The translations under genes were made by a program, and so were the position numbers. The notes beneath the pieces were generated by a model, which was not told the origin of the DNA, did no database searches, and worked only from the letters and a program-made list of their open reading frames with translations. From the NCBI GenBank assembly GCA_965287045.1, contig OZ336903.1, positions 7,254,001 to 7,318,000 of the forward strand: DNA of 64,000 bases, in the 5' to 3' direction. Each line of letters opens with the position of its first letter. Position 1 is the first letter of the stretch. Shown piece by piece: positions 610 through 38,633 of this stretch. This DNA comes from Carcharhinus amblyrhynchos (taxonomy: Eukaryota).

Positions 610-728
610 CTCCAGTGCAAGTTCCTGAACTTGTTGAAATAAGTCCAGGTCTTTCTCTGTCACAATGTCTTTGCTCAGTGATTGGTCATCCTCATTTTCA
701 AGTTTGCAGCCCCACGAGTCCTGATTGT
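610..728 (-). CDS. KAT6A: KAT6A internal coding exon (119 bp), just upstream of the MYST domain
   Basis: ttctgaatctgcag|ACAATCAG...CTGGAG|gtgaga translates to (D)NQDSWGCKLENEDDQSLSKDIVTEKDLDLFQQVQELALE, matching the KAT6A pattern DNQDGW...TEKDMELF..IQEQALQ. Confidence 0.94.
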
Positions 729-4845: not shown

Positions 4846-5554
4846 AGAAGTGCACTGGTCTCTCTCTCTCTCTCACACCCAATGAAAAGGTGCCAGAATG
4901 GGCAGTTTTGTTCTAATCCTACAAATGCGAATGAGCTGAAATGCTTTGAATAAAAAAGCGGGAGGCGACTAGATGCAATTCTATGCAATACAGAAAATAC
5001 TCTGCAAGTGACCTGGCCTCATCAATCTGCATGTGACCAGATTTTAATCAGCCAACTCTACCTTGGGGAATATTTTCCAGTTTAAATGGATGTTCCTCTC
5101 ATGCCATGAAAGTGATGCCCAGTAGCAGTGATACTTCAGTACTTTCCTTGAAATACTTCTATGTCACTGTTCATTTGGAGGCAAATAATGTGGTCAGACA
5201 CCTGGTGTTGCAACCCCACCCTCTTTCAAAGTGTTCATATCAGCCAATTTAATGAGCGCAATGATTATATGAAGGCAGTAAGTCTGAAATTAAGATAGAA
5301 AATAATGGAAATAAACAGCAGTATTTGACAAAGATTGTGAAGAAAGTTCCTGCCTCAAATTCTTATGGACCTATCGTGTATTTTTATTTTAATTGCTGAA
5401 ATGAAAACATGCAGAGCTACTTTCATGGCACAAGCCCAACCCCCTTCCCCTCCCAAAGGAGAACAGCAACTACCTGAAGCACCCCAAAAAAGCGTAATTA
5501 AAAAGCCAATTTCTAGTGCTAGCGATGCACAATAGCACGGCATTTACTTCTTAC

Positions 5555-6097
5555 CCTTGTCCTCGGCACTTTTACTCCTTTCTAATTCCACGGTCCCCTT
5601 CCTGTGCCAAAGGATCGTCTTTCCATGTCTCATTTTACACCGGCTGCCCCTTATTGCTTTCTCTCTCACAGAAAACGGCAGGAAATAATGAGAGTGCAGT
5701 TTAGCCGCCGTTTCTACAGATGTACTCAGTCGTAGGTAAGGTGAGATTTGCAAATTGCAACTGTTTTTCATGCTACTGCCCCAATAGCTTGGGAGAACAG
5801 AATTAGCAGTGGAAGTAGGACAAGGTTCACATGGTGTAAGACAAGGAGGAGTTAACTCAGCATCTGCTTCGCCAGAGAGTTTGGGAGAATAAAGAGAGGA
5901 AGGAGAATCAATTGGCTCCTTTCTTAACCTGGGCATTCTGCACTTAGTTAACTGGCCAGTGAATGTCTGCTTATTGAAGTTATCAAGCGGGCTAGCACAA
6001 GAAGATGATCTGATGTTACTAATGTGGCACCTTGGCGCTGGTAAAGAAATCTCAGGTGATACTGGGCATGCAGGGATTAATGTGGTCAGTGCAGTAC
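5555..6097 (-). CDS. KAT6A: Putative alternative in-frame 3' extension (543 nt, 181 codons) of the preceding KAT6A exon via a distal splice donor
   Basis: The frame stays open past the proximal donor (ORF 5544..6320) until GACAAGG|gtaagaag at 5555/5554. This consensus donor is in the same phase (1), and a stop follows within 3 codons. Confidence 0.65.
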
Positions 6098-6417
6098 CTG
6101 TGGGCCATGTGCTGCTGTCAGAAGTGCTTGATTTTCGTGGCCCCTTTTTCTTGAGCCTGTATTGCTCAGCTAAGTCCAGGAGTTCACCCCGTGGCTTGCG
6201 GCCATCAGGTGAAGGGGTGAAGAATTTGCTAAGGCCATCAATGAGCCCTTTGGTTTTCTTGTTCATTTTCAGGCGGGAAGATTTGGTGGTTCGCGAGTTC
6301 AAAGTGCTCAGTCCATCCAACCGTCCCGACTTTGATGAGGGGATTGCTGAAATTTTGCGTTTGCGACCCCGACCGGAACATTGTCTCTCTTTGTCAAATG
6401 GCTGAGAACCTTTTGAT
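6098..6417 (-). CDS. KAT6A: KAT6A internal coding exon (320 bp, proximal donor), linker with the conserved [18 protein letters not shown] motif
   Basis: ctctttcacag|ATCAAAAGG...CCCACAG|gtactg translates to (V)[23 protein letters not shown]...[68 protein letters not shown] is KAT6A-like. Phase 2 to phase 1. Confidence 0.94.
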
Positions 6418-36508: not shown

Positions 36509-38633
36509 TTGTGGACTCTAAACATTAATGATGTTTCTCCCTCCACAGATGTTGTCAGAACTGCCGAGTTTATCCAGCATTTTGTGCTTTTAATGTGCGT
36601 TTTTAATTCTTTAACACTAGGATCAACAGTTGGCTTTTATTTCTCCAGCACAGCAGAAAGTACAACTTATTACTCAAAATCACAGTTGAATTAGTTCTTG
36701 CTTTTTGGCCCTGTTGAGTTCTTCTCGGCAGATTTGCCTTTAATAACTTGGGGATTGTCACAGTAACTTCATTGCAGTGTTCATGTCAGCTAACATGTGA
36801 TGATGCAAATAAATAAACTTTAAGCAGTTCTCTTGGAACACCATGAATTTCTCAGTCAAATGCCATTATCGCAGTCATTAATCAGATCTGGTTATTATAG
36901 CAATGTACCTTTTTTTCTGTGAACCTATGTTTCGCGCTTTTAATCTCACCACTGCTTATTCTTTTTAATATCGATTCTATAAATAAGGTAAGGGGGTTAA
37001 TTGTCAATCTCGTGACTCCCTCCAGAGAGCTGAGCAGAGAAACTAAGCAATCGATCAGTTTATCTGCTTTTGTACAATGAAATGCATGTTGGGAACACAA
37101 ACCACTGCATCGTCTATCCAATCCCTACAAGATAACACTCATAATTTAAGCGTGGGATTCCAAGTTGTGAACTTTTTATGACTATGCTTACTAAACGCGC
37201 AACTTGTTAGTGGTATTAAGTTAACATTTTTTATAACTAATCCGACACATGATATAATCGGGTTTCTGAAAATCATTTAAAATCGGGTTTGCAGTTACAA
37301 AGGCCATTTTGTAATGATACATAACCAGGGGTGAAATTACTGATGCTTTGATTATGTTATTAGCAATTTATACATATAAATATTCAAATCTAACTGATGT
37401 AGCCAGGTTCAAGTTTGCTCACAAATCAGAAAACTTCCAAATCTAAGGTTTGAATACTCCTTCAAATTCAATTTCATTTCCAAAAGAAGATGAATACAGC
37501 CTTAGTGACCATGTAGGATATAACATCTGGGGCCTCAACAAGCAACAAAAAGAGCCAAAATACCAAATATGCATATATTAAACACACTGCACACTTCAAA
37601 ACCTCATTCTCAAAAACTTCTCAGCAAATTTTCTGAGCTAAAATACTCTGACAGATTCAGCTGATCTGTAATCCTCTCACAAATAAATATACTTTAGTGC
37701 AGCCAACTGACAGCACACAAAAGCAAAACTAAAACTGAGTTTGAAAGTCAACACTGAAAGATATCACGAGTGCCGAAATGAGGTGTTCCTCATGTAATGC
37801 AGTTCACTAATCCCTCGTGGAGTTCTTCACTGGTGCATGTTGCGAGGGATAAGATGGCACTGATGTATCCCAACATAATTTATATTAGTGCATTGCGTGG
37901 GAATAAATGAAAAACGGTTTGGTAATTAGTCTCTCATGAGTTGAGATTCCTTTAAAAGGGATCCCTTGTCTGTGGAGTGTAAATTTATTTTACTTGATCC
38001 TTGTTTTTAAAAGCCTGCTTCCCCCTGCACTTCGGGTTAGTCTTCCTGTAACATCTTGCACCAATTTCTGCCTGAGGCAGACAGATCAGTAAATGCTGCT
38101 CCATGTCAAGCCCCTGGGAGATACACAGGTGCAGTCTGGGGTGACTTGTACTCCCATTTTTCATTTCAGAGAGCAGATGCTTCATCTCACTAGCCTGCAC
38201 AGACAAGATCAGGAAAGTACCATGTGACAAACACTGGAACAAAGCTTCACGTTGCAGCATCTGGAGTTACAAAATAACCTGACCGACAAAGCTGTTATTA
38301 CTGATAGAATTGTATTCATTGGCACCCATTGATTAAATTACATCTCGTGAAATTCTGAACATGGAATATTCAAATACACCAGAATGCGCATACGTATTAA
38401 GACTGGCTGAAATAAATTCCACAGATTTGTTGTGTATCTGGTATTTTGTGGCACATCCTAGGAAATGTCCAGCTGCGGTACGTAATGCACTTGTGAAAGA
38501 GCATACAGAGAACATCAAGCTGAAATTACTGGCTTGAGTGTGTGTGGTAAAACATACCATGCCTAAACTATGGATCTTACTTCCTCTGCATTTTTCCCAA
38601 CTGGGTTTCCAGAAAGATAGACTCAACTCAAAA

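Follow-up and report, generated by a model that had tools for sequence, protein, structure and literature searches.

Does KAT6A in sharks possess a long isoform of the kind known from its paralog KAT6B, and does the segment that would make it long descend from a splice choice older than both genes? The question is raised by a stretch of 64,000 nucleotides of Carcharhinus amblyrhynchos DNA (hereafter the window), where a KAT6A exon encoding part of the linker that precedes the MYST domain stays open beyond its proximal splice donor and ends at a second one. Considering the evidence set out below, we judge it quite probable that the long KAT6A isoform is used and ancestral.

The window exons of the gene share 88-100% identity with carpet-shark KAT6A-like proteins, and the downstream exons lie in order in the neighbouring DNA. 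The carpet-shark ortholog (P0122) displays in Pfam the WH/H15, double PHD and MYST domains in the KAT6A order, with MYST starting at residue 685, and the exons of the C. amblyrhynchos gene map in order to its residues 200-2036. The DNA examined yielded no exons for P0122 residues 1-199, and no KAT6A coding match was found in window positions 24362-64000. Several open runs in the upper 40 kb of the window resemble pieces of mobile repeats (e.g. near 36600, 41700 and 47900). In a quick, unrooted IQ-TREE phylogeny of the last exon (24 rows), the gene groups with carpet-shark KAT6A, and 12 KAT6A rows are split from 11 KAT6B rows with a support of 100. An ankyrin-type ZU5 match, a candidate counterpart of ANK1, which adjoins KAT6A downstream in human, is located around 0.32 Mb downstream on the same strand (C34:6.87 Mb). 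Two strong loci in the genome match KAT6, this gene and KAT6B, and they lie on different contigs; a third match (L003, E 0.006, with internal stops) was taken as chance.

One could still regard the shark gene as a third copy nearer to KAT6B and not as the KAT6A ortholog, in which case no loss in bony vertebrates would be needed. Midpoint rooting of the last-exon tree, performed with no outgroup, does place shark KAT6A beside KAT6B, but the path length from the shark gene (summed from the tree) is ~0.75 to human KAT6A against ~1.3 to shark KAT6B, and the KAT6A-type sequence after the exon, the ankyrin-type neighbour and the count of only two KAT6 loci also speak against a third copy, which we consider extremely unlikely. 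As judged from these sequence comparisons, the gene is the KAT6A (MOZ) ortholog.

The original prediction described a 543-nt open frame, two donors in the same phase and a stop past the distal donor, and all its coordinates hold on the minus strand (Table 1). The frame from 6452 to 5547 comprises 302 codons and is the longest of the 32 minus-strand stop-free runs of at least 100 codons in the window, the next having 153; given the stop-triplet frequency of the window (0.052), a run of 181 open codons would arise by chance with a probability of about 6e-5. The constitutive part of the exon shows 94% identity with residues 348-452 of the C. punctatum KAT6A-like X2 model. The exon measures 320 nt when the proximal donor is used and 863 nt when the distal one is, and the joins from 6098 to 728 and from 5555 to 728 both translate in frame. 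A stop at 5546-5544, three codons beyond the distal donor, is hit only on read-through, and a poison-exon reading was rejected because the distal join is in frame and free of stops.

Table 1. Features of the KAT6A gene of C. amblyrhynchos in the window.
Feature	Positions	Strand	Basis
Four upstream PHD-region exons	~24361-24248, 17253-17137, 12426-12343, 10259-10125	-	tblastn, 97-100% identity to carpet-shark KAT6A
KAT6A exon, constitutive part, 320 nt, between double PHD finger and MYST domain	6098..6417	-	AG acceptor, frame
Proximal 5' splice site CAG|GTACTG, short isoform	6092..6097	-	Sequence; last exon base 6098
In-frame exon extension, 543 nt, 181 codons, Ser/Pro-rich	5555..6097	-	Stop-free; 77-80% identity to four carpet-shark models, 63% to P0144
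Putative eroded trace of second GL-DGL motif, 12 residues	5886..5921	-	20/36 nt and 4/12 residues identical, ungapped
Conserved 3' block, purine-rich, basic in protein	5555..5674	-	65/120 nt identity to KAT6B, ungapped
Distal 5' splice site AGG|GTAAGA, long isoform	5549..5554	-	Sequence; last exon base 5555
Intron flank beyond distal donor	5430..5554	-	19/42 pseudo-residues match P0144 read-through, ungapped; 40/120 nt vs KAT6B
Next exon, 119 nt, AG/GT ends, acceptor common to both donors	610..728	-	

The distal donor had been described as having the better consensus, which stands in direction and by a modest margin: it matches 7/11 consensus positions against 6/11 for the proximal donor, and its predicted U1 duplex reaches -8.9 against -7.1 kcal/mol. 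The 181 residues of the extension include 26 Ser, 18 Pro and 9 Cys, with 12 Lys/Arg among the last 45, and we infer that the segment is likely disordered. Searches against Pfam returned no family for either the KAT6A extension or the KAT6B insert.

A long KAT6A isoform carrying an insert before MYST, as had been foreseen for this shark, is encountered in its relatives, where RefSeq models from five carpet-shark species (H. ocellatum, C. punctatum, C. plagiosum, R. typus and S. tigrinum) have this extension spliced to the same following exon. In the cluster of P0122 (n=7), the distal join (AEDK-DNQD) is present in six of the seven members, the seventh being a 215-aa N-terminal fragment. The long models (XP_072410284, XP_060712673, XP_060712677, XP_020386712, XP_043537474 and XP_048378701) share the 181-residue extension and the distal join with C. 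amblyrhynchos, from which they differ at the sequence level (77-80% identity in the extension); that of H. ocellatum has 2036 residues. Models for both donors exist in C. punctatum, H. ocellatum and S. tigrinum, and the long model is isoform X1 in three species. The proximal join is present in the RefSeq models P0002, P0003, P0145 and P0146 and in bony-vertebrate KAT6A. Both the long and the short carpet-shark forms are automatic RefSeq models, which come without comment on their origin; as a rule, alternative variants are retained in RefSeq only when transcripts support them. Carpet sharks are one shark order, and all the named support falls within it, together with P0144, a cartilaginous-fish-like record that reads the exon and the extension (180 residues, 63% identity) and continues through the distal donor. 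Among the records recovered there was no KAT6A of a named ray, chimaera or dogfish. Considering these records, use of the distal donor in C. amblyrhynchos is likely, and the long shark isoform, being already in RefSeq, is not new to databases. A metagenome scan with the extension gave 298 pattern matches, none of them confirmed, and the ESM Atlas returned no usable match for the KAT6A extension or the KAT6B insert.

The S. tigrinum model (XP_048378701, P0186) is weaker evidence, because it starts in mid-extension, at a Met in residue 17 where the window has Ile; it holds residues 17-181 only, leaving that species without a complete long form among its records. Its start may reflect an incomplete model, a misassembly or a genuine upstream break.

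Alignment with related sharks, proposed as a check on the frame and the donor, bore them out: the open 181-residue extension and the distal donor are kept in carpet sharks. The extension is 181 residues long in C. amblyrhynchos and in all five full carpet-shark copies, and 180 in P0144. In an alignment made without P0186 (partial), P0187 (fragment) and P0189 (duplicate insert), its last 52 columns are the most conserved, with 47-48/52 identical to carpet sharks and 38/52 to P0144, and the first 45 columns show 28-31/45 identical. Compared with C. punctatum, the KAT6A extension (139/181) and the KAT6B insert (136/177) are both 76.8% identical, the last coding exon reaching 92.8%. The extension evolves no faster than the accepted KAT6B insert between the same lineages.

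These data also bear on the idea that the extension survives in C. amblyrhynchos as a relic, already dead or on its way out, with its frame open by virtue of the slow change of shark DNA and its distal donor unused or noise. In neutral simulations (3000 runs each, with assumed indel rates) the share of runs that preserved the frame was 0.1-1.6% at 78% identity and 0-0.1% at 63%, and under substitution alone it was 17-18% and 5%, respectively. The substitution-only figure at 78% identity leaves some room for a relic, as do the late start of the S. tigrinum long model and the intron flank past the distal donor, which is also alignable, ungapped, to P0144 for at least 31 codons; since this flank is conserved too (19/42), similarity alone is no proof of coding. 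Against decay stand the exact length and the donor kept in five named species and P0144, the long models ranked as isoform X1 in three species, and a distal donor that scores no worse than the proximal one. A relic is in our opinion very unlikely, and a used long isoform is the reading we carry forward.

The second part of the question concerns KAT6B, whose locus in the same genome displays the same two-donor layout with an extension of 531 nt (L002:1835-2365); KAT6B long inserts in general span 175-186 residues. The last 120 nt of the KAT6B extension, a block chosen after the sequences had been inspected, were slid ungapped over both strands of the window, and the best position fell exactly at 5674-5555, with 65/120 identities, the highest of 127,762 offsets (next 53, mean 30.1). 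None of 158,096 further offsets in the flanking loci exceeded 53, and for each of six lengths between 30 and 180 nt the in-register match at the distal donor came out on top. The DNA score of the whole extension (64) was reached by 0/500 shuffles and 0/890 real decoys (decoy maximum 28), and that of the upstream part alone (25) by 2/500 shuffles and 0/890 real decoys. Other comparisons are weaker: the first 120 nt of the two extensions are identical at 28/120 ungapped positions, blastn gives E 0.52, and the gapped local DNA alignment score was reached by 31/1000 shuffles.

At the protein level the global score of the inserts was reached by 10/1000 shuffles, and the upstream 141 residues scored no better than shuffles (246/1000). 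The last 40 residues are identical at 9/40 positions between the KAT6A extension and the KAT6B insert, which also differ in the second GL-DGL motif, intact in KAT6B. A comparison of the insert profile with that of KAT6B, which the original prediction had proposed, gave no significant match in hhalign (E 0.13, probability 0.45%; KAT6B alignment made without P0067 and P0093, whose end was not parsed), with the two 3' ends in register along its best stretch. The likeness to the long insert of KAT6B claimed at the outset survives in the DNA homology and the same donors; it is not significant in the protein profile, and the motif is eroded. The KAT6A extension is, as far as sequence can tell, a homologous but diverged segment and not a like-for-like MORF-beta insert, because the protein profile match is not significant and the second GL-DGL motif is absent.

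Extensions that arose separately in KAT6A and KAT6B, with equal length by chance, or a later gene conversion, would be the other way to account for the likeness. The non-significant protein likeness and the 28/120 identities of the first 120 nt suit such an origin, both 3' blocks are purine-rich, and the comparison was made without an outgroup. Yet the in-register DNA match at the donor beats ~286,000 offsets, the upstream part on its own beats 890 real decoys, and a motif trace occurs at a like position; furthermore the two genes are on separate contigs, and their identity at four-fold sites is only ~40%. We therefore regard separate origin or conversion as quite unlikely, and common descent of the segment and the distal donor would be the simplest reading, in agreement with the earlier proposal that the two-donor layout predates the KAT6A/KAT6B split: the same donors are found in KAT6B of the same genome, and the extensions are DNA-homologous and in register at the distal donor. 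Among the protein search matches there was no named jawless or invertebrate KAT6.

Small variants occur at this exon join. Several KAT6B models carry one extra Ala and salmonid KAT6A models three extra residues (P0151, P0053, P0050, P0051; P0179, P0197), which suggests minor nearby splice sites.

The KAT6B insert contains a second copy (KGLFDGLSHIYT) of a GL-DGL motif that is also found in the constitutive part. This second copy was present in 12/12 of the long records listed, around 100-110 residues downstream of the first, and from sharks to rodents no other block of the insert is as invariant. The records with the motif repeat are L002, P0044, P0050, P0051, P0056, P0063, P0067, P0093, P0148-P0150 and P0180-P0182. 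An intact second copy is absent from the KAT6A extension of C. amblyrhynchos and from P0122, P0185 and P0144, where only a trace is seen; this putative trace, picked after viewing the KAT6A/KAT6B alignment, sits at a like position in the two extensions. No function or paper was found for the motif in a search of mainly open-access literature. In the constitutive part of shark KAT6B the basic residues before the first motif have drifted to TTYG or TTFG from KTKG (L002:1700-1800), and KTKG is kept in shark KAT6A and chimaera KAT6B.

What selection acts upon within the insert was approached through codon positions. Between the paralogs, the 3' block is identical at 22/18/25 of 40 first, second and third positions, the third being the highest; the corresponding counts are 309/327/179 of 357 over nine pairs of constitutive exons (one misaligned pair left out), where four-fold sites are identical at 39/97. 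These post hoc and small tests gave P 0.024 for the third positions of the block against four-fold sites, 0.047 where residues differ and 0.18 against all third positions, and the pattern may be taken as a hint of constraint at the RNA level. A conserved intron flank is often seen beside regulated splice sites.

A variant of the preferred reading follows the same lines: the long isoform would be real and ancestral, its insert protein a tolerated passenger, and selection would act on the frame, the distal donor and the RNA splicing signals of the last 120 nt and the intron flank. The 3' block lacking a coding signature between paralogs, with third positions highest, the conserved flank and the erosion in shark KAT6A of the KAT6B motif copy are all consistent with it. 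The P value of 0.18 and the post hoc nature and small size of the tests weaken this variant, as do an insert that evolves no faster than that of KAT6B in the same lineages, folding z-scores near 0 for the four donor regions (-0.35 and 0.46 among them) and the lack of any Rfam match in window positions 5300-6100. We hold the passenger variant to be a serious minority share of the reading of a real and ancestral isoform, and we are evenly divided on whether protein sequence, and not splicing signals, is the main thing under selection in the insert.

The canonical bony-vertebrate KAT6A (MOZ), ortholog of the shark gene, uses the proximal donor and carries no homologous extension in the records examined. 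This agrees with the initial statement that canonical human KAT6A (2004 aa, P0141) lacks the insert. Genomic frames of bony-vertebrate-type KAT6A end 7-41 codons after the proximal donor in 18/18 cases, all of them amniote-like or teleost-like, and some of these short frames may end at contig ends. The read-through count was made without P0177 (frameshifted, KAT6B-like) and P0183 (unassigned), and P0160 was counted despite its chimeric look. P0160 appears to be a KAT6B/KAT6A chimera joined at the common motif, and P0177 a frameshifted mammal-type KAT6B copy. A hand count over 87 bony-vertebrate KAT6A records gave two with a long insert at the join, neither matching the shark extension: that of P0012 (Colius, ~79 residues) is unrelated with a best blastp E of 2.3, and that of P0143 (Otolemur, UniRef, ~177 residues) is unrelated with no blastp match, both being probably gene-model artefacts. 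In KAT6B the long form persists, wholly or in part, in chimaera, sharks, bichir, coelacanth, teleost-like records, birds and rodents. The records point to a likely loss of the long form from bony-vertebrate KAT6A.

We propose that the two same-phase donors, 543 nt apart, would both be used in C. amblyrhynchos, giving KAT6A in a short form and in a long form that has 181 more residues before MYST, and that this donor choice would have been inherited from the single gene ancestral to KAT6A and KAT6B. The choice would set the length and content of the PHD-to-MYST linker with the frame unchanged and no premature stop. The long form of KAT6B adds the second GL-DGL copy and a basic block, probably its ancestral function, and the ancestral switch may have determined whether a binding motif was present once or twice. 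KAT6B would have kept this switch, shark KAT6A would have lost the motif copy and retained the frame along with the basic 3' block and its distal donor, and bony-vertebrate KAT6A would have lost the long form altogether. The order of events and any function of the insert are inferred from these comparisons. In its most specific version, the long KAT6 isoform would be an ancestral one-copy/two-copy GL-DGL switch and shark KAT6A a fossil of its loss, in which the motif decayed first and the distal donor and last 120 nt were held at the nucleotide level since the duplication, pointing to a common RNA-level control of splicing still acting in KAT6B; this version we offer tentatively and consider rather doubtful.

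The KAT6B (MYST4) variants MORF itself, MORF-alpha and MORF-beta involve the same exon, with two same-phase donors and a 3' block and donor homologous to those of shark KAT6A. MORF-alpha is given as 109 aa shorter than MORF-beta and the function of the MORF splice variants is called uncharacterised (PMC2190771). Database pairs of long and short KAT6B differ by 179-183 residues, which equals 292 minus 109. Exon 37 of NCoR2 and NCoR1 offers a similar case: two donors allow a short linear motif to be included or omitted, and the authors argue that this choice is older than the duplication and was lost in one paralog, Xenopus NCoR1 retaining the long form after loss of the inner donor, with a Ciona outgroup seen and function tested (Short et al. 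2015, PMC4554918). As there, KAT6 presents a two-donor motif choice that would predate the duplication, with one paralog losing the choice; in contrast to NCoR1, KAT6A would have lost the outer donor and the long form, with sharks in between.

No paper was found on the long shark KAT6A isoform, its homology with the KAT6B insert, the repeated motif or the bony-vertebrate loss in a search of mainly open-access literature. The accessible portions of PMC9454415, PMC1949830, PMC10297931, PMC12678635, PMC11861323 and PMC9881136 make no mention of the long shark isoform.

KAT6A and KAT6B are disease genes that also serve as drug targets, and to our knowledge the KAT6B insert is usually regarded as KAT6B's own. 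That one paralog loses an old splice choice is a pattern already known. If the preferred reading is true, two small targets would be marked in KAT6B, namely the motif repeat and the 120-nt block adjoining the distal donor, and the KAT6B insert would be ancestral and lost by KAT6A in bony vertebrates.
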